DNA of 64,000 nucleotides, taken from IMG/VR virus record IMGVR_UViG_3300020472_000012, positions 1 to 64,000 of that record; one strand, given 5' to 3'. Position 1 is the stretch's first letter. Every line of letters starts with the position of its first letter. Origin of the DNA: a virus. This document shows positions 15,810-39,410 of this stretch, one piece after another. The position numbers and the translations under genes were made by a program. The notes beneath the pieces are model-generated. The model saw only the letters and a list, made by a program, of their open reading frames with translations. It was not told the origin of the DNA and did not search any database.

Positions 15810-18800
15810 ATGCCAACAAAAGCAAGATATCTTGCAGACTTATTAAATGCATCTGGGGAGTTAGACTCTACTGGTGCAGTTGAGAGTATTCAAGATAATA
15901 TATCAACACTATTCAGTGCTGGAACTCATACAGGTATATCATTTACCTATGATGATTCCAATGCAACATTCAGTGCAGCCGTTAATCAAGACGCAGTTGC
16001 AGCTGGATTTTATCACAAAATCGCAGTAACAGTTTCAAGTAGCAAGTATTACTTGGATGGAACACAACAAGCAACAGCGATACTGTCTCCCTCAGTATTG
16101 TATAGATTTGACTTGTCTGATTCATCTAACGCTAATCATCCTCTAAGATTCTCTACTACTTCTGATGGAACACATAACTCTGGTGCAGAAATATCAGCAG
16201 GGTATACAACATATTCTAAACAAGGAACGCCAGGTTCATCTGGTGCATACACAGAAGTATGTTTTGAACAAGACCAAACAAACCCACTTTATTACTATTG
16301 TTCTGCACATAGTGGTATGGGTGGTACTGCATTGTTAGGTATTATGCCTAACTCAGATTTTTTAACAGAAGGTTCAACTAACCTTTACTATACAGACGAG
16401 AAAGTTCAAGATGTGGTTGGTGCTCAAATAGCAACCAATGGTTCACATACTGGATTAACTGCCACCTATGATGATGCTGGTGATGGTGCAATAGATATAG
16501 CACTATCCAGTGAATATGTACAAGACTTAGTAGGTGCAATGGTATCATCTAATACTGAGAGCGGTATTAGTGTAACATACGAAGATGGAGATGGTACTTT
16601 AGACTTCAATGTTAATGACCCAACAATTACCCTTGCTGGTGATGTTACTGGTTCTGCAACAATGACAGATTTAGGTAATGTATCTATTACCACAACCATT
16701 GCAGCTGATAGTATTGCATTAGGAACAGACACAACTGGAAACTATGTACAAACAATAACTGGAACTACAAACGAAATAGAAATATCTGGTTCTGGTTCAG
16801 AAAGTGCAGATGTAACAATAGGTTTACCGAATGATGTAACGATTGGAAATGATTTAACAGTTACAGGAGACTTAACTGTCTCTGGAACTACAACTACTGT
16901 ATCGTCATCAACAGTTGCAATTGCAGATGTAAACATGAAGGTTGCAAAAGATAACGCTGCAAATGCAGTAGACTTTGGAATATATGGTGCATACAATGAT
17001 GGTTCTGGAAAATTTGCTGGACTTAACTGGGATGCATCTGAGTCAGATAAGTTTAGACTCTTTCATGGAACTGCAACAGAACCAACTACTGTAGTAAATA
17101 CTGGTGCAAGTGGTTGGACAAAAGGAACATTAATTGCAGACTTAGAAGGTAACGCTTCTACTGCAACTGCATTAGAAACTTCAAGAACACTTGCATTAGC
17201 AGGTGATGTTACTGGTTCTGCATCTTTTGATGGAAGTGGAAATGCAACAATAACTGCAACTATATCTGCTGACTCTGTTGCATTAGGAACAGACACAACA
17301 GGAAATTATGTTGCAGATGTCGCTGGTGGAACTGGTATTACAGTTACACATAGTGCTGGTGAAGCATCAACACCTAGTGTTGCAGCCGACCTTGCAACAA
17401 CAAGTGCAGTTGGTGTTGCATCATTTAACTCTACAGACTTTACAGTAACTTCTGGTAATGTTGAGTTGGTTGATGAAGCAATTCAAGATGTGGCAGGTGC
17501 TCAATTAGCAACTAATGGTTCACATACTGGTATCACTGCAACATATGATGATGCTGGTGATGGGGCAATTGACCTTGCACTAATAACAGAAAATGTAGAA
17601 GATATAACTGGTGCTCAATTAGCAACCAATGGTTCCCATACAGGAATAACTGCAACTTACGATGATGCTGGAGATGGTGCAATAGACCTTGCATTAGTAA
17701 CAGAGAATGTACAAGACATTGCTGGAGCTCAACTTGCAACTAATGGTTCACATACTGGTATCTCATTTACATATGATGATGCTGGTGATGGTGCTATAGA
17801 TGCAGTAGTAAGTGGTGCAGCTGCAACTATCATATCAGATTTTGGTGAAGCAGTTGCCGACACAGTAGGGGCAATGTTCAGTGGAAACACAGAAACAAAC
17901 ATAACAGCAACATATGTTGATGATGATAATACTATTGACTTAGCCGTTTCTGGTAATATGTCTAGTATCGTATCAGATTATCAAGAAGCAATCGAAGATG
18001 TTGTAGGTGCAATGGTAGGTTCTAATACCGAAAGTGGTATTGCTGTAACATACGATGACACAAATGGTAAGTTAGACTTTGATGTATCAGACCCAACGAT
18101 TACTCTTGCTGGAGATTTAGGTGGTTCTGCAACAATAACTAACTTAGGAAATGCAACCTTAACTGCAACAATACAAGCTGGTTCTGTAGAAAACAGTATG
18201 TTAGCAGGTTCAATTGCAAACAGTAATCTTGCAAATTCAACAATAACAGTTTCCGATGGTTCTAACACAACTGCAACTGCATTGGGTGGAACAATAACAT
18301 TTGCTGGTACTTCAAACGAAGTAGATGTTGCAGAGAGTTCTGGAACAATTACATATGGACTACCATCTGATGTAACAATATCAAACGACTTAACAGTTAG
18401 TGGAGACTTAACAGTTACAGGGTCAACAACTCAAACTGGTGCTGTAGTAACAGACAATAACTTTACAGGGTTAACAAATGCAAACTCTGGAAACTCAACA
18501 GACTTTGGTTTCTATGGTAAGTATGTAGAATCTTCAACCACAAAATATGCTGGTTTATTCTACGATGCATCAACTGATAATACATTCAGACTCTTTAGAG
18601 ATACAGAAACAGTACCTTCAACAACAGTAAATACTTCTGCATCTGGTTATGGTGTTGCAACTCTAGTTGCAAATATTACAGGTGATGTTAGTGGTTCATC
18701 TGGAAGTACAACAGGTAACGCTGCTACTGCAACAGCACTTGCAAGTGCAAGAACTATTAGTGGTGTAAGTTTTGATGGTACTGCAAACATAACTTTAGAT

Positions 18801-19760
18801 ACAGACGACATTGGTGAAGGTTCAAGTAACCTCTATCATACAAGTGAAAGAGTACAAGATGTTGCTGGTGCTCAATTAGCAACTAATGGTTCACATACTG
18901 GTGTTTCAGTTGCATATGACGATGCTGGAGATGGTGCAATTGATATAACAGTTGCAAACTCAGACTTTGCATTGACTGGTGATGTAACTGGTACTGTAAC
19001 ACAGACTGCAAAAGGTAATGTATCAATTGCAACTACGATTGCAGCTGACTCAGTTGCATTAGGAACTGATACTACTGGTAATTATGTTGCTGGAGTAAGT
19101 GGTGGAACTGGTGTTTCAGTTAGTGGTTCTGGTTCAGAGAATGCAACTGCAACAGTTTCAATTGGACAAGCAGTAGCAACAACTAGTGATGTAACCTTTG
19201 CAGATATAGCTGCAACTGGTGATGTAACAATTACTGGTGACTTAACAATAAATGGTACAACAACTACTGCATCATCTACTAACACTGTAATTGCAGATAG
19301 ATTAATAGAATTAGGAAATGGAACTACTGGAACTCCAGCCAATGATATGGGTATTGTTCTTGAAAGAGGTTCATCCGATAATGTGTTTATTGGTTGGGAC
19401 GAAAGTGCAGATGTAGTTACAGTAGGAACTGGTTCATTTACAGGTGCATCAACTGGTGACTTAACAATAACAGCAGCTGCTTTAACAGCTGGAGAGTTCA
19501 CTGGTACTGGTGGTACATTTGGTAATGTTCAAGTAGGTGTAACAGGAGATGGAGAGATTGATACAAGTTCTGGTAACTTAACAATCGATTCTGCTGGTGG
19601 TACAACTACAATAGATGATACTGTATCAATAAGTGGAGCTGCAACAACAGACTATACAACAATTGGAAGTAGTGCAAAATCATTCAGAAATGTGTTCATT
19701 CACGACTCTGCACCGAGTGGTTCAGATGGTGCTGTGGGTGACATCTGGGTAACCTACTAA
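15810..19760 (+). CDS. Long tail fibre-like protein
   Basis: 1316 aa, G/T/D/S/A-rich, several repeat families, C-terminal SAPSGSDGAVGDIWVTY. Confidence 0.85.
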   Translation: MPTKARYLADLLNASGELDSTGAVESIQDNISTLFSAGTHTGISFTYDDSNATFSAAVNQDAVAAGFYHKIAVTVSSSKYYLDGTQQATAILSPSVLYRFDLSDSSNANHPLRFSTTSDGTHNSGAEISAGYTTYSKQGTPGSSGAYTEVCFEQDQTNPLYYYCSAHSGMGGTALLGIMPNSDFLTEGSTNLYYTDEKVQDVVGAQIATNGSHTGLTATYDDAGDGAIDIALSSEYVQDLVGAMVSSNTESGISVTYEDGDGTLDFNVNDPTITLAGDVTGSATMTDLGNVSITTTIAADSIALGTDTTGNYVQTITGTTNEIEISGSGSESADVTIGLPNDVTIGNDLTVTGDLTVSGTTTTVSSSTVAIADVNMKVAKDNAANAVDFGIYGAYNDGSGKFAGLNWDASESDKFRLFHGTATEPTTVVNTGASGWTKGTLIADLEGNASTATALETSRTLALAGDVTGSASFDGSGNATITATISADSVALGTDTTGNYVADVAGGTGITVTHSAGEASTPSVAADLATTSAVGVASFNSTDFTVTSGNVELVDEAIQDVAGAQLATNGSHTGITATYDDAGDGAIDLALITENVEDITGAQLATNGSHTGITATYDDAGDGAIDLALVTENVQDIAGAQLATNGSHTGISFTYDDAGDGAIDAVVSGAAATIISDFGEAVADTVGAMFSGNTETNITATYVDDDNTIDLAVSGNMSSIVSDYQEAIEDVVGAMVGSNTESGIAVTYDDTNGKLDFDVSDPTITLAGDLGGSATITNLGNATLTATIQAGSVENSMLAGSIANSNLANSTITVSDGSNTTATALGGTITFAGTSNEVDVAESSGTITYGLPSDVTISNDLTVSGDLTVTGSTTQTGAVVTDNNFTGLTNANSGNSTDFGFYGKYVESSTTKYAGLFYDASTDNTFRLFRDTETVPSTTVNTSASGYGVATLVANITGDVSGSSGSTTGNAATATALASARTISGVSFDGTANITLDTDDIGEGSSNLYHTSERVQDVAGAQLATNGSHTGVSVAYDDAGDGAIDITVANSDFALTGDVTGTVTQTAKGNVSIATTIAADSVALGTDTTGNYVAGVSGGTGVSVSGSGSENATATVSIGQAVATTSDVTFADIAATGDVTITGDLTINGTTTTASSTNTVIADRLIELGNGTTGTPANDMGIVLERGSSDNVFIGWDESADVVTVGTGSFTGASTGDLTITAAALTAGEFTGTGGTFGNVQVGVTGDGEIDTSSGNLTIDSAGGTTTIDDTVSISGAATTDYTTIGSSAKSFRNVFIHDSAPSGSDGAVGDIWVTY
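17470..17810 (+). repeat. Three tandem 38-aa (114-nt) fibre repeats
   Basis: ExxxDxxGAQLATNGSHTGIxxTYDDAGDGAID x3; further copies near 16400 and 18850. Confidence 0.85.
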
Positions 19761-19798: not shown

Positions 19799-21373
19799 AT
19801 GGCATCAAAGATAAAGACAGGCCCAACAACTTGGACAGATACCTATGGTATGAGGGTAAAGACGCCTGGTGGGTGGAATAAGGTAGTTGATGTTAAGAGG
19901 AAAACTCCTACTGGGTGGCAGTTTGTTACTGGTACAATACAGGTAACTCAACCTTATCAACAGACTTATCAACAACCATATCAGCAACCCTTTCAACAAC
20001 CTTATCAACAACCATATCAGCAACAGAATAGTAGACCTTCTACTTATGAAGTAACTATACCTCGACCTGCTAACTACGAACAGACTATACCTAGACCGAA
20101 TCAATACGAACAAACGATTCCTAGACCTGCTAACTACGAACAGACTATACCTAGACCTTCTAGTTATGAACAAACTATACCTAGACCTTCTAGTTATGAA
20201 CAAACTATACCTAGACCAAATAGTTACGAACAGACAATACCAAGACCTACTACCTATCAGACACAAGGTACTAGGCCTGCATTCTATCAGTCTCAAGGTA
20301 CTAGACCTGCTTCATATGAGCAGACGATACCAAGACCTGCTTCATATGAACAGACGATACCAAGACCTGCTAACTACGAACAAACAATTCCTAGACCAGC
20401 TTTTTATCAGACACAGGGTACACACTTTTATCAAACCCAACATTTGCATCACTTCTATCAGACACAAGGGTCTCACTTTTATCAGACACAGGGTACATCA
20501 TTTCACCAGCACCAAAATGCTGGGTTCCACCAAATACAGAACTCTAGACCAACTACTTATCAGATACAAAATGCAAGACCTACTTTCTATCAAACTCAGA
20601 TAGCTGGATTCTTCCAGCCTGGGCCAGGTTTTAAAAATGGTGGTGGTACATGGTATCCACCTTCACAGCATCAGAATGCAAGACCTACTTTCTATCAAAC
20701 ACAAGGTAGTAGACCAGCATTCTACCAGACACAAGGTACACACTTTTATCAGACACAGCATTTACATCACTTCTATCAGATTCAGAATCAAGGATTCCAT
20801 CAGATACAGAATGCATCATTTCACCAACACCAGAATGCTGGATTCCATCAAGTGCAAAATTCTAGACCTACTTCTTATGAGGTTACTATTCCAAGACCTA
20901 CTTCTTATGAGGTAACAATATCTAGGCCTACAAGTTATGAGGTAACTATACCAAGACCGACTACTTATCAGATACAAAATGCAAGACCTACAACTTATCA
21001 GATACAAAACTCTAGGCCATCTTCATACGAGGTTACAATATCTAGACCTACTTCTTATGAAGTGACTATACCTAGACCTACTTCTTATGAAGTAACAATA
21101 CCTAGACCAACAAGTTATGAGGTAACAATACCTAGACCAACAAGTTATGAGGTAACAATACCGAGACCTACATCATATGAGGTTACTATTCCAAGACCTA
21201 CTTCATATGAACAGACGATAAGTAGACCAACTACTTATCAAGTTACTGCACCTAGACCAGCAACTCGTCCAACAACGAGACCTGCTACTAGACCAAGTAC
21301 AAGACCATCAACAAGACCAGTCTCTACATGGGATGGAGACCTTGCTAAGCCTTGGGATGGTTCATCAGATTAA
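19799..21373 (+). CDS. Mirror-symmetric repeat protein, putative fibre-tip hairpin adhesin
   Basis: Trp/Lys N-terminal domain; 4-, 10- and 8/9-aa repeat blocks mirrored around GFFQPGPGFKNGGGTWYPP; AGGAG RBS. Confidence 0.75.
   Translation: MASKIKTGPTTWTDTYGMRVKTPGGWNKVVDVKRKTPTGWQFVTGTIQVTQPYQQTYQQPYQQPFQQPYQQPYQQQNSRPSTYEVTIPRPANYEQTIPRPNQYEQTIPRPANYEQTIPRPSSYEQTIPRPSSYEQTIPRPNSYEQTIPRPTTYQTQGTRPAFYQSQGTRPASYEQTIPRPASYEQTIPRPANYEQTIPRPAFYQTQGTHFYQTQHLHHFYQTQGSHFYQTQGTSFHQHQNAGFHQIQNSRPTTYQIQNARPTFYQTQIAGFFQPGPGFKNGGGTWYPPSQHQNARPTFYQTQGSRPAFYQTQGTHFYQTQHLHHFYQIQNQGFHQIQNASFHQHQNAGFHQVQNSRPTSYEVTIPRPTSYEVTISRPTSYEVTIPRPTTYQIQNARPTTYQIQNSRPSSYEVTISRPTSYEVTIPRPTSYEVTIPRPTSYEVTIPRPTSYEVTIPRPTSYEVTIPRPTSYEQTISRPTTYQVTAPRPATRPTTRPATRPSTRPSTRPVSTWDGDLAKPWDGSSD
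19948..21325 (+). repeat. Coding tandem repeats (12-, 30- and 24/27-nt units)
   Basis: RPxxY(E/Q)xxxx decamers with synonymous third-position variation. Confidence 0.9.
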
Positions 21374-21426
21374 TGATTTGAAAGGGTAACTATATACCCT
21401 TATAAACTTTATATTATGGAGAAATT

Positions 21427-22062
21427 ATGTTATTAGTATATGACGACAACAATACTCTTCACCTAAGAAATGAAAGAGGACTACGATGGAGTTATGAGAG
21501 AACAGACCGACCAGAGTTGGGGTTCGATTTTGACTACCTATTCTATAACCCACCAGAAGATGAATTCTATGAACTCAATGGTGAGGCACAACCCTTAAGT
21601 CAAGAACAACTTGACCAAGTAAAAGAGTATATCTCTTTATCAGAACCGCCTGATGTAATCACCTTACAAGACCAACATATAGGTGATTTAAAAGACCATA
21701 TCAATCAACAACTAGATGGAATCCTAGATGATTTAGGATATCATGGTTGGGTTGAAGTAATGTTAGTTGGTAGAGAGGGTTCACAAGACCCATATCGTGC
21801 AGAATCAAGACGAGTTCTTGAGTTTAGAGACTGGATATTTCAGACTTTTTATAGACTTGAAGAAGAAATTCGTTTAACTGTAGATGCAGATTTACTATCT
21901 TTGGATGCTTATATCCAGAAATTACCAACTATTCCAAGAGCAGAATGGTTCTCTAGAGGGGATAGACCTATTGCAGAAAGACTTAAACTTCTTGCAGATA
22001 GTGACACTTTAGATGTAAATGAAGGTGAGTCAGCACTAGGGGAAGATAAGAGAGCAGTCTAA
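21427..22062 (+). CDS. Tail fibre assembly/chaperone-like protein
   Basis: LDDLGY...DPYRAESRRVLEFRDWIF resembles the GYD...F.AEA....WRD.VW pattern of fibre assembly proteins; position after the fibre genes. Confidence 0.55.
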   Translation: MLLVYDDNNTLHLRNERGLRWSYERTDRPELGFDFDYLFYNPPEDEFYELNGEAQPLSQEQLDQVKEYISLSEPPDVITLQDQHIGDLKDHINQQLDGILDDLGYHGWVEVMLVGREGSQDPYRAESRRVLEFRDWIFQTFYRLEEEIRLTVDADLLSLDAYIQKLPTIPRAEWFSRGDRPIAERLKLLADSDTLDVNEGESALGEDKRAV

Positions 22063-22907
22063 TGTCCGATAGAGATTTATTCTCTTGGATAGACGAACCT
22101 CTTAAAATAGTTCACCTAGAGAAATCACAACCATTAAAACAACTTCCACATAAAGAATGTTGGATAATTGATAATTGGTTACCAGATTCCATCTTCCAAT
22201 CTTGGATAGATTGGAGAAGTCAATCAGTCAATTGGGGATTATCTAATAGAGTAATAAGGGATGGAGAGAAACAACACCTATATTGGGGTGAGTCTTTCTA
22301 TACTTCTTTACGAGAAATTAAAGCTTATCATGGTGGAGATAAGTTAAGAATTCAACCTTTATCAAAAAGAAGATGGAGTAATGTCTCTCCAGATTGGAGA
22401 AAAACAGTCATTAATACTAATGAATCTGGATATTGTCATCCACTTGTTGATAATATTATATGGAGATTGCAACAAGAATTTAGATTTGACTGGGTTAGAT
22501 TTCAATATTGTGGAATGAATGGACAGATAACTGGACAGGATGGAACACTTCATGAGGACACTCATAAGGGTGAGGATGGTATTAATAACCTAACATTTCT
22601 CTTTTATGACCAACCTTACTGGGAAGATGACTGGGGTGGTGATTTAATCTTCTATGATAGTAGGTGTCATGATGAACAATTTGGTAAAGGTATATTAGAA
22701 AACGAAGAAGAATATGAGATTGGTCGTGTTCAATATAAACCTAATAGACTAGTTGTGGTTAATGGAATGATTACACACAGACATCCAGGCCCAACTGCAC
22801 CATATGAGAAACCACATTTTCCTTTTAGAACTTCTTTAGTTTGTCGTGGGGATGAAATAAAGTTGTGGGACAAAGGAGTATATAAACATAAAGAATATGA
22901 ATACTAA
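22062..22907 (+). CDS. 2OG-Fe(II) oxygenase (prolyl-hydroxylase-like)
   Basis: HED...WEDDWGGDLIF...PNRLVV...ITHR...RTS. Confidence 0.85.
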   Translation: MSDRDLFSWIDEPLKIVHLEKSQPLKQLPHKECWIIDNWLPDSIFQSWIDWRSQSVNWGLSNRVIRDGEKQHLYWGESFYTSLREIKAYHGGDKLRIQPLSKRRWSNVSPDWRKTVINTNESGYCHPLVDNIIWRLQQEFRFDWVRFQYCGMNGQITGQDGTLHEDTHKGEDGINNLTFLFYDQPYWEDDWGGDLIFYDSRCHDEQFGKGILENEEEYEIGRVQYKPNRLVVVNGMITHRHPGPTAPYEKPHFPFRTSLVCRGDEIKLWDKGVYKHKEYEY

Positions 22908-23685
22908 AATAATTTTAATAATGGGATTGCCAGGCTCTGGTAAAACCACTCTTGCAAAACATCTATTAGACTACATTGATGCAGAACATTATGAAGCAGA
23001 TGTTATTAGACAGATAGAAAACGACTGGGACTTCTCCGAAGAAGGGAGAATGAGACAAGTATATCGAATGAGAGAACTTGCACAAACAACTAAAAGACCA
23101 TATGCAATATGTGATTTTGTTTGTCCTTTAGTAGAAGGTAGAGAAATTTTACAACCAGATATAGTTATCTGGATGAATACTATTGAGAAAGGAAGGTTTG
23201 AAGACACCAATCAAGTGTTTGTAGAACCAGAAAAAGTCGATTATCTGGTTACAGATTACAATGCAGAACTACATTCAGAGGTCATTTCTAGAACAATTCT
23301 AGAAACTTCTGCAATTTCTTTTGACCCTAAACTACCAACTACACAGATGTTGGGCAGATATCAACCATTTCATGATGGTCATCTTGCATTATTTGAGAGG
23401 TGTCATGAACAAACTGGTCAAGTAGTTATCATGGTAAGGGATATGCCAGCAGATATAAAGAACCCTTTTGACTTTAAAACCATTAAACAAAACATTAAAT
23501 TATATCTTCTAGGGGAAGGATACGAAGAAAATCATGATTATGTTATCATCAAAGTACCTAATATTGTAGATATTAGTTATGGTAGAGATGTAGGATATAG
23601 TATAACCGAACATAAATTTGATAAAGATGTAGAGGAAATTAGTGCAACAGAGATAAGGAGACAGATTGGCATCAAGGAAAATTAG
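22897..23685 (+). CDS. APS-kinase-like P-loop domain fused to an HxGH nucleotidyltransferase
   Basis: GLPGSGKTT, ADVIR...DFSEEGR, DFVCP; then GRYQPFHDGH and ISATEIR. Confidence 0.8.
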   Translation: MNTKIILIMGLPGSGKTTLAKHLLDYIDAEHYEADVIRQIENDWDFSEEGRMRQVYRMRELAQTTKRPYAICDFVCPLVEGREILQPDIVIWMNTIEKGRFEDTNQVFVEPEKVDYLVTDYNAELHSEVISRTILETSAISFDPKLPTTQMLGRYQPFHDGHLALFERCHEQTGQVVIMVRDMPADIKNPFDFKTIKQNIKLYLLGEGYEENHDYVIIKVPNIVDISYGRDVGYSITEHKFDKDVEEISATEIRRQIGIKEN

Positions 23686-38102: not shown

Positions 38103-39410
38103 ATGTTTATGTCAGAATCTTTACAAGAAAAGTGGCAGCCGGTATTAGAACATCCTGATTTGCCTAAAATCGATGATTCATACAAAAGAGCAGTCACTTC
38201 TGTAGTTCTTGAAAACCAAGAAAGAGCCTTAAACGAAGACAGAGGAATGATATCTGAAGCATCACCAGTTAACGCTGCTGTTGGTTCCGATGGGTCTGGT
38301 ATCTCAAACTGGGATCCAATCCTAATTTCTTTGGTTCGTAGGTCTCTACCTAACTTGGTTGCATACGACATTTGTGGTGTCCAACCTATGACTGGCCCAA
38401 CTGGGTTAGTATTTGCAATGAAAGCTCGTTATAACGATAACACTTCAAGGTTAGCAATGACCGAGGCGTTATTTGACGAAGCAGATTCAGATTTCGCTGG
38501 TGCGGGAACACAAGCTGGAACAGACCCATTTGGGGATGCAGCCACTTATGCTTCTGGTACTGGTATGACTACTGCAGCAGGGGAGGCATTGGGTGACAGT
38601 GCTTCAAATCCTTTTGCTAGTATGGCTTTCACAATTGAGAAAGCAACTGTAACTGCAAAAACTAGAGCTCTCAAAGCAGAATACACTATTGAACTTGCAC
38701 AAGACCTTAAAGCAATTCATGGTCTTGACGCAGAAACAGAACTTGCAAACATATTGTCTGCTGAAATCCTTGCGGAAATCAACAGAGAAGTTGTAAGAAC
38801 TGTTAATGTTCAAGCTAAAACTGGTGCTCAGTCTGGTACTGCTAATGCTGGTCGATTTGACCTAGATGTTGATTCATCTGGTCGTTGGTCAGTTGAGAAA
38901 TTTAAAGGCATGCTCTTCCATGTAGAAAGAGAAGCTAACACAATTGCAAGAGAATCAAGACGAGGAAAGGGTAACTTTATCCTTTGTTCTTCTGATGTAG
39001 CATCTGCACTAGCTATGGCTGGTGTACTTGACTACGCTCCTGCTCTCTCAACTAACCTAAATGTTGACGATGCTGGTAATACTTTTGCTGGTGTTCTTAA
39101 TGGTAAGTATAAAGTCTATATTGACCCATACTACACATTAGACCCAGTAAGTGGTCACAGTAACGAAGGTTACATGACTGTTGGATATAGAGGTTCCAAT
39201 CCTTATGATGCTGGTATATTCTACTGCCCATATGTTCCATTACAAATGGTTCGTGCGGTTGGTGAAAATACTTTCCAACCAAAAATTGGTTTCAAAACTC
39301 GATATGGAATGATTTCAAATCCATTCGTAGGTTCGTCTCCAAGTGATGGTCTTGCATCAGCAGGAAGTAACTTCTACTACAGAAAGGTCGAAGTAGAAAA
39401 TATTCTATAA
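38103..39410 (+). CDS. gp23: Major capsid protein gp23
   Basis: GVQPMTGPTGLVFA; ELAQDLKAIHGLDAE; FQPKIGFKTRYG. Confidence 0.98.
   Translation: MFMSESLQEKWQPVLEHPDLPKIDDSYKRAVTSVVLENQERALNEDRGMISEASPVNAAVGSDGSGISNWDPILISLVRRSLPNLVAYDICGVQPMTGPTGLVFAMKARYNDNTSRLAMTEALFDEADSDFAGAGTQAGTDPFGDAATYASGTGMTTAAGEALGDSASNPFASMAFTIEKATVTAKTRALKAEYTIELAQDLKAIHGLDAETELANILSAEILAEINREVVRTVNVQAKTGAQSGTANAGRFDLDVDSSGRWSVEKFKGMLFHVEREANTIARESRRGKGNFILCSSDVASALAMAGVLDYAPALSTNLNVDDAGNTFAGVLNGKYKVYIDPYYTLDPVSGHSNEGYMTVGYRGSNPYDAGIFYCPYVPLQMVRAVGENTFQPKIGFKTRYGMISNPFVGSSPSDGLASAGSNFYYRKVEVENIL

Follow-up and report, generated by a model that had tools for sequence, protein, structure and literature searches.

Fibrous proteins are the main determinants of host recognition in phages, and few fibrous folds are understood well enough for engineering. 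A chain that turns back to pair with itself is familiar from the arms of SMC/Rad50/SbcC, whose N- and C-terminal halves turn back at a hinge or tip and run antiparallel against each other for tens of nanometres; their termini share one head and their lengths are coupled. The nearest precedent in kind for the protein described here is the receptor-binding needle of T4 gp37, the structure of which was reportedly determined by Bartual et al. in 2010 (PDB 2XGF). In this long-tail-fibre protein, domain D11 (residues 882–1009) is inserted into the collar domain D10 (residues 811–881 and 1010–1026), and the chain runs out to the tip and back (PMC6957217). Seven iron ions are held in the needle by His motifs (PMC6957217). 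Here, we describe a gene at positions 19799–21373 of a 64,000-nucleotide (nt) stretch of viral DNA (positions 1 to 64,000 of IMG/VR virus record IMGVR_UViG_3300020472_000012; hereafter, the window). Its product consists of two arms of short repeats that mirror each other around a central tip, and the mirror partners are complementary rather than identical. A repeat-by-repeat complementarity code of this sort is shown by neither gp37 nor SMC/Rad50, and we know of no description of a mirror code or barcode for gp37.

The protein was split into units at its RP and xF linkers. Each unit comprises a core of 4–8 residues (e.g. Y-E-x-T-I), which is predicted to be a ß-strand, and a Pro-rich linker. 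The repeat periods of 12, 24 and 30 nt correspond to 4, 8 and 10 residues, and Cys is absent from the window protein. An ATG preceded by GGAG at 12 nt upstream starts the gene, which is laid out as follows (tetramers, arms, tip and His motifs from the tokenised protein):

19799–21373, plus strand: whole gene, 524 codons plus stop (protein P0001), from the open reading frame call
19799–19948, plus strand: N-terminal cap (N-cap), residues 1–50, (K/R)xKTPxGW motif in three tandem copies, column identity of about 90% in the family alignment
19949–20032, plus strand: six QP[YF]Q-type aromatic tetramers and the outermost Q-type core, residues 51–78
20033–20605, plus strand: N-terminal arm (N-arm), residues 79–269, 20 units
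20438–20449, plus strand: HLHH of the N-arm, residues 214–217, mirror partner HQH 342–344
20504–20512, plus strand: HQH of the N-arm, residues 236–238, mirror partner HLH 320–322
20606–20662, plus strand: tip, residues 270–288, a 19-residue Gly/Pro-rich turn
20663–21253, plus strand: C-terminal arm (C-arm), residues 289–485, 21 units, N-arm order mirrored with complementary types
20756–20767, plus strand: HLHH of the C-arm, residues 320–323
20822–20830, plus strand: HQH of the C-arm, residues 342–344
21254–21325, plus strand: six RPx(T/S) tetramers, residues 486–509
21326–21370, plus strand: C-terminal cap (C-cap), residues 510–524 (TWDGD..KPW), Trp-rich and nearly invariant in the family comparison

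The N-arm contains, in order, seven TIP units, two Q units, three TIP units and then the Q/His units, which have one long linker, five short ones and two further long ones. With the units paired from the tip outward, 19 of the 20 mirror pairs in the window protein are complementary. This means that both units belong to the same family and that core position 3 is polar (Q/T) in one arm and hydrophobic (V/I) in the other. When the C-arm units were shuffled, the number of complementary pairs averaged 5.7 and never exceeded 14, so that none of 20,000 shuffles reached 19. Slipping the register by one or two units leaves 6–10 complementary pairs, and a parallel alignment of the halves leaves four. 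Cumulative arm lengths differ by at most one residue at every unit boundary, and the linker lengths mirror as well. The mirror complementarity is thereby confirmed as real and far beyond chance.

An earlier, sequence-only reading of the window had proposed this symmetry, and much of its detail was recovered. The tip that it had placed at 20606–20662 was reproduced as residues 270–288. The facing pairs YEQTI/YEVTI (10/10, with the single swapped pair), TQG/IQN (7/7) and HLH/HQH (2/2, with the exchange of sides near the tip) were found again, as was the opposition of linker HF to GF/SF (5/5). The mirrored block counts also came out on tokenising, but they describe the linkers better than the units, and two more pairs exist: a Q-type pair beyond the earlier count (residues 199–208 with 348–355) and an outermost pair (YQQQNS with YQVTAP). 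Six QxYQ-type tetramers do mirror six RPxT tetramers in number, but this number is invariant in the family and hence carries no information on covariation.

The symmetry resides in the protein and not in the DNA, as the same reading had held. The gene DNA contains no meaningful inverted repeat, with just two weak pairs of 13–18 nt, which rules out a DNA or RNA palindrome as the cause of the mirror pattern. All versions of the EQ-type unit (9/9) have distinct DNA, in which different codons specify an identical peptide. In the N-cap, the window and the homologue L001 are separated by 18 synonymous differences and one non-synonymous difference. This indicates that the caps are under strong purifying selection and that the gene is real and selected as a protein.

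IMG/VR was scanned twice, and this yielded 24 contigs, 23 of which carry full-length homologous genes. The window protein and L001–L003 form subgroup 1, and the other homologues form subgroup 2; the two subgroups share only ~50% identity. Complementary pairs amount to 19/20, 19/20 and 24/24 in subgroup 1. Subgroup 2 was scored by a strict rule, which demands the same unit family and a position 3 that is hydrophobic in one arm and polar in the other. Here, 356 pairs are complementary and 45 are not, and shuffles average 3–7 of 20; the tip boundary is imperfect in L018 and L030, each with one spurious unpaired unit. Pooling the first 11 full-length proteins without L004 gives 95 EQ/EV, 79 TQG/IQN, 27 short a/b and 9 HxH/HQHQN pairs. 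Like pairs in the same set are restricted to EQ/EQ (four) and EV/EV (two), the other types having none. The short 8-residue types (YQTP-like and QVQNS-like) face each other in 27 of 27 cases among the first 11 full-length proteins.

This agreement does not reflect a fixed order of units. The order differs among homologues, and in ten proteins compared all 20 mirror positions vary, with 2–6 states each. Several of the changes are compensated across the tip. In L001, the lone internal EV unit of the N-arm lies opposite the sole internal EQ unit of the C-arm, and the polarity of the Q-block is opposite to that of the window. A change from E to Q has struck both partners at once (YQVTI/YQQTI), and in L011 a rare unit is present twice, with its partner also present twice at the mirror position. 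The HxH/HQHQN pairs occupy mirror positions in all 9 cases in the window protein and L001–L003, and in subgroup 2 an HQHQN/HxH pair is likewise found at a mirror position of L027.

At the level of units and across 17 distinct architectures, the mirror partner gives the highest mutual information, alone or jointly, for 16 of the 20 units. Mutual information averages 1.27 bits on the mirror diagonal and 0.53 bits off the diagonal; the value within one arm (0.52 bits) serves as a measure of the contribution of shared ancestry. The sequence-only reading had predicted that homologues fetched through their caps would have balanced arms, covarying unit types and a variable tip. This prediction, defined in advance, held in the 23 full-length homologues, where partner covariation is evident both on the mirror diagonal and in the compensated swaps.

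The arms are balanced as well as complementary. Most homologues have 20 units in each arm (20/20), and the register of the arms is kept within 0–2 residues at every boundary. Three homologues (L024–L026) have 21/21 units with an unchanged length in residues (198 and 202), and L003 carries four extra units in each arm (24/24 plus the outermost pair). The expectation that length would change by paired steps in both arms is thus borne out, with L004 as the sole exception. In L004:4001-5707, which was compared with L010, there is one extra EV unit, an exact 30-nt tandem copy of its neighbour. It sits in a run of near-identical repeats and is absent from the nearly identical L010, and it represents either a very recent slippage or an assembly error. 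Arm length is near-constant at ~196–202 residues across the subgroups. Because these share so little identity, this suggests that the length of the rod may itself be under selection.

The caps are nearly invariant, and the arms are rebuilt in each lineage. In the N-cap, the (K/R)xKTPxGW motif occurs three times at a spacing of 14–15 residues, a triplet that might suit a three-fold partner, e.g. the upstream fibre. An N-cap profile found nothing significant among PDB sequences, and against Pfam it gave sub-threshold hints of SH3-like or small ß-barrel folds (RimM, ribosomal L2/L8, Xrn1 D2/D3). The tip has the same length (19 residues) in L001–L003 as in the window. In subgroup 2 it is an insert of 29–72 residues around an NPKFG-type motif (PK[FY]G), and most of these tips also contain GPW. 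An alignment of 16 such proteins shows a frame of YQVQ.Y..(A/G)NPKFG on the outward path and YQP.GPW on the return, between which loops vary in length and sequence. Outside this alignment, the tips of L023 and L034 are much shorter (29 residues). The subgroup-2 tip resembles a small distal domain with a hypervariable loop.

We consider it likely that the gene encodes a fibrous virion-appendage protein, whose chain folds back as an antiparallel ß-ribbon rod with its units paired to their mirror units. Self-pairing is strongly supported by natural covariation; physical pairing within a chain, ß-structure, oligomeric state, metal binding and a role in the virion are what we infer beyond it. In such a rod, the chain would run out for ~220 residues, turn at the short Gly/Pro tip and return antiparallel, with each N-arm unit placed against its mirror unit in the C-arm. 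Pairing would require the same family and length (E-type, Q-type, short or His type), together with a hydrophobic residue (V/I/L) at core position 3 of one strand and a polar one (Q/T/S) on the other. The irregular order of the families would then act as a barcode that fixes the register of the repetitive arms. A barcode had already been suggested in the sequence-only reading, and in line with this slipping the register in L009 reduces the complementary pairs from 20 to 4–5.

The resulting rod would be ~65–75 nm long. The N- and C-caps would meet at its base, where the rod probably docks, perhaps onto the protein encoded by the upstream fibre gene. The variable tip, a candidate receptor contact in the sequence-only reading, would face outward at the far end. 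In the window subgroup, HxH and HQH motifs would face each other at two levels near the tip, which by analogy with the gp37 needle suggests metal binding. The amphipathic ribbons would probably bundle with their hydrophobic faces inward, as one face carries Tyr/Ile/Val and the other Glu/Thr in the modelled register. The trimer is the usual state of phage fibres, and a trimer of hairpins, similar to the gp37 needle, is our preferred guess. Position in the fibre block, a direction of transcription shared with the structural genes and the combination of conserved caps with a variable tip indicate that the protein is probably a fibre component of the virion. It could form a whisker of its own, a side fibre or the distal part of the long fibre. 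The chances appear about even that the protein is a natural 'beta-zipper' in the full sense, i.e. a rod of ~70 nm whose register is set by a family match, a one-bit hydrophobic/polar complement and an aperiodic barcode, with a conserved length of about 200 residues per arm and His clusters near the tip that bind metal.

Structure prediction gives a partial picture of this fold. AlphaFold2 (AF2), given a segment of 178 residues around the tip of L028 and an alignment with 16 homologues, places five strands in each arm, at residues 6–12/168–174, 16–22/158–164, 26–34/146–154, 38–46/134–142 and 50–57/123–130, boundaries that all sum to 180. Read as an antiparallel ladder, this register pairs core position 3 with position 3 (the V/Q or I/T site), Tyr at position 1 with position 5 (Ile, or Gly/Asn in the Q units) and position 2 with position 4 (Glu-Thr or Gln-Gln). 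One face of the modelled ribbon then carries Tyr/Ile/Val and the other Glu/Thr. The same register would put four His of HxH and HQH on the inner face at two levels (214–217/342–344 and 236–238/320–323), an arrangement compatible with metal sites. A Foldseek search with the tip model gave no significant match (E ≥0.27, TM-score (template modelling score) ≤0.15). Its weak neighbours are long two-stranded hairpin stems (lysenin, anthrax PA and epsilon toxin; the tail proteins of phi29, P68 and Andhra) and not meander sheets. For the Atlas model of the full protein, SbcC clusters are among the weak neighbours, with a TM-score of 0.18–0.19 that lies far below any threshold. We regard these structural neighbours as hints, not proof.

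Several points weigh against the folded-back rod. The sequence-only reading had expected structure prediction to give an anti-diagonal contact map; the tip segment fits an antiparallel hairpin, but at low confidence (mean predicted local distance difference test score, pLDDT, 48.5), and the full-length AF2 model from an 11-sequence alignment has no fold (mean pLDDT 30.8, unfolded). Strand pairing in the tip model was deduced from strand boundaries and the fold type of the neighbours alone. A continuous ß-ladder with two prolines in every 10 residues would be unusual. About 10% of pairs break the strict rule, and the exceptions are nearly all polar/polar; hydrophobic/hydrophobic pairs are confined to the outermost pair, plus one case beside a tip. 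Searches of cultured phages with blastn and tblastn returned no relative of the repeat gene. The trimer and the metal binding are drawn from analogy alone. Finally, mirror covariation is expected equally from a hairpin and from a head-to-tail antiparallel dimer. The antiparallel self-pairing put forward in the sequence-only reading agrees with the balanced arms, the covariation in 23 homologues and the low-confidence tip model.

If chains paired head to tail in an antiparallel homodimer or higher bundle, the N-arm of one with the C-arm of another and without folding back, the rod would be two-fold symmetric and about double the length. Each end would carry caps, and the 'tip' would lie at the centre. 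Mirror covariation and balanced arms would be identical, and the caps would still meet. The centre of the protein, however, is rich in Gly/Pro/Asn, as is typical of a turn, and in subgroup 2 an asymmetric insert takes its place, with loops of variable length. The AF2 monomer model of the tip folds back, albeit at low confidence, and with so short a turn pairing within the chain is kinetically favoured. We therefore regard the homodimer as unlikely.

It is less likely still that the protein is an extended, largely unstructured Pro-rich spacer or a substrate for modification (e.g. by a 2-oxoglutarate (2OG)-Fe(II) oxygenase), with its halves bound beside a symmetric or antiparallel partner. Such a spacer would agree with the lack of a fold in the full-length AF2 model, with the Pro/Gln/Thr-rich composition and with the prolyl-hydroxylase-type gene conserved nearby (see below). 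However, AF2 would be expected to score poorly on a repetitive family that is new and represented by few sequences. A symmetric third party can hardly explain why unlike units mirror each other, or why the register is kept within 0–2 residues over ~200, and no candidate partner is known.

Short repeats of 8–10 residues with a 5-residue strand are also known from triple ß-helices, and the one in T4 gp5 has an octapeptide repeat (PMC3004832). The two halves could thus be successive repeat arrays of a parallel ß-solenoid or triple ß-helix of the gp5 or gp12 type. This would predict that the halves are unrelated or directly related to each other; instead, parallel alignment gives 0–4 complementary pairs of 20 against 19–20 for the mirror alignment, and mutual information falls on the mirror diagonal. 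A solenoid is accordingly very improbable. Least credible of all is an artefact, whether from misassembly of a repeat or from a non-coding stretch of low complexity. Assemblies are indeed prone to break at repeats, the N-cap is joined to an M16 peptidase in one ENA contig, and large protein libraries carry only fragments of the family. Against this, full-length, in-frame genes lie on 24 independent contigs and agree in their caps and gene order, the excess of synonymous differences in the caps indicates a real gene, and collapse or expansion during assembly would destroy the mirror balance rather than create it.

How does the folded-back rod compare with described systems? As in gp37, the N- and C-terminal parts would lie side by side, and the gene belongs to the tail-fibre cluster of a T4-like phage. 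In the window protein, HxH faces HQH at two levels near the tip. A chain that runs out and back, like that of gp37, is indicated indirectly for the window protein by the mirror covariation, the balanced arms and the low-confidence AF2 hairpin. Facing HxH/HQH pairs occur in subgroup 1 and L027, whereas most of subgroup 2 lacks HxH. Furthermore, the window protein has no collar domain and no sequence similarity to PDB entries, and its arms of ~200 residues are built of regular units of 8–12 residues, in contrast to ~60 irregular residues in gp37. A gp37-type tip recognisable by sequence or profile is ruled out, since no PDB chain was found at E ≤ 1 and no Pfam or PHROG fibre family matched.

The hairpin stems of pore toxins and podophages share with the proposed ribbon the very long two-stranded antiparallel hairpin, the alternation of residues that point in and out, and self-assembly. 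They measure 30–100 residues, are non-repetitive and form many-stranded membrane barrels, whereas the window arms are ~200 residues long, punctuated by Pro and encoded in a fibre cluster; the similarity is no evidence of homology. SMC, Rad50 and SbcC embody the same design principle in α-helical form. Their arms are coiled coils that follow heptad rules and lead to an ATPase head, and they share no homology with the window protein. Adhesins of the gp38 kind combine a conserved N-terminal region with a distal loop rich in Gly, as does the window protein. Our gene resembles gp38 of the T2/S16 type in its position directly after a long fibre gene, but the protein is far longer and built of mirror repeats, and no PHROG or Pfam match places it in the gp38 or Tfa families. 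A collagen-like fibre is ruled out by the periods of 4, 8 and 10 residues and the lack of Gly at every third residue.

No Pfam family matched the repeat protein above threshold. Its sole Pfam matches, to Keratin_B2 (PF01500 and PF13885; 24 and 18.6 bits), fall below the cut-offs of 28.7 and 27. This family consists of Cys-rich pentapeptide repeats and the window protein is free of Cys, so membership was rejected and the match attributed to composition. PHROGs gave one weak match (E 1.2e-4) to a family of unknown function. Four matches to Lactobacillus phages in the cultured-phage search are weak matches between repeats. Searching 1.8 billion representatives with phmmer returned only N-cap fragments and unrelated, eukaryote-like tandem-repeat proteins, and the one contig recovered by a word-index search, an ENA contig of 1.7 kb, is chimeric (protein P0002). 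In P0002, a family member's N-cap and its first tetramers pass straight into M16-peptidase-like sequence. Most likely, this chimera marks an assembly break inside the repeats, and such breaks would account for the near-restriction of large protein libraries to N-cap fragments. The unit motifs were not found in the papers searched, and nothing comparable emerged there for cyanophage fibres or for fibres that fold back. Within Pfam, PHROGs, PDB sequences, cultured phages and the papers searched, the sequence-only reading was right that no described family has this architecture, but the gp37 needle is a real conceptual precedent. As far as the libraries covered show, the architecture is new.

The family is of interest for the design of fibrous proteins. 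Sequences alone here come near to giving a contact map, in the form of 20 unit pairs that covary across 24 natural variants, and they provide explicit, testable pairing rules for a very long two-stranded ß-structure. They offer a natural instance of a repetitive protein with negative design against slippage of its register, and bear on how register is specified in long ß-ribbons and how length can change without loss of the fold (+4/+4 and +1/+1 were seen). The code might be reused in designing ß-rods of set length. If the 'beta-zipper' reading is correct, the pairing rules would be the counterpart for ß-ribbons of the heptad rules in coiled coils, and the family would represent a new fibrous fold that evolves via compensated changes in two distant segments of a gene. 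It also marks a conserved, unannotated block of appendage genes in abundant uncultured marine T4-like phages, whose nearest relatives by the major capsid gene are Pelagibacter and OM43 myophages.

The window is the first 64 kb of a 114-kb IMG/VR record (estimated 63% complete) and comprises the structural module of a T4-like myophage, with genes for the baseplate wedge, several fibre-like giants, terminase, sheath, portal, scaffold and major capsid. The major capsid gene (38103–39407) is closest among cultured phages to those of Melnitz, a phage of OM43/Methylophilales, and of the Pelagibacter myophages Mosig and HTVC008M (~69–72% nt identity), ahead of the cyanophages. Because of this ranking, the host is more likely a small marine heterotroph than a cyanobacterium. 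The repeat gene lies in the tail-fibre block, is transcribed in the same direction as the structural genes and has these neighbours:

15810–19760, plus strand: upstream 1316-residue repeat-rich fibre-like protein with PHROG tail-fibre and minor-tail matches
21427–22062, plus strand: 211-residue acidic protein, always the next gene, no Pfam or PHROG family
22062–22907, plus strand: second gene downstream, 2OG-Fe(II) oxygenase-like, PF13640 prolyl-4-hydroxylase (P4H) type (E 2.2e-5, 25.8 bits against a cut-off of 27)

The order of genes is kept in the first 11 loci: fibre, repeat gene, 211-residue protein, 2OG-Fe(II) oxygenase-like, kinase/nucleotidyltransferase-like and two more. The fibre-like gene ends 38 nt before the repeat gene and is directly upstream in 10 of 11 loci, i.e. 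all that reach that far. Its product contains several copies of a ~35-residue motif (ATNGSHTG..YDDAGDGAID) as well as GTDTTGNYV segments, and its C-terminal 45 residues are well conserved (76% identity in L009). The three genes directly 3' of the repeat gene (21427–23685) are conserved in 11 of 11 loci (L001–L011). The 211-residue protein, a candidate assembly factor, had no relative in cultured phages by blastn or tblastn.

Proline hydroxylation by a chlorella virus P4H is known. The adjacent P4H-type gene suggests that prolines of the repeat protein may be hydroxylated. The link may also be due to chance, since marine T4-like phages carry many 2OG oxygenases. Scans for promoters and terminators around the gene gave nothing decisive. 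Just 3' of the stop codon (21374–21426), a stem (AAGGGTA..TACCCTT) precedes an AT-rich run; the consensus terminator scan did not call it, and it may be a weak terminator that closes the fibre operon.

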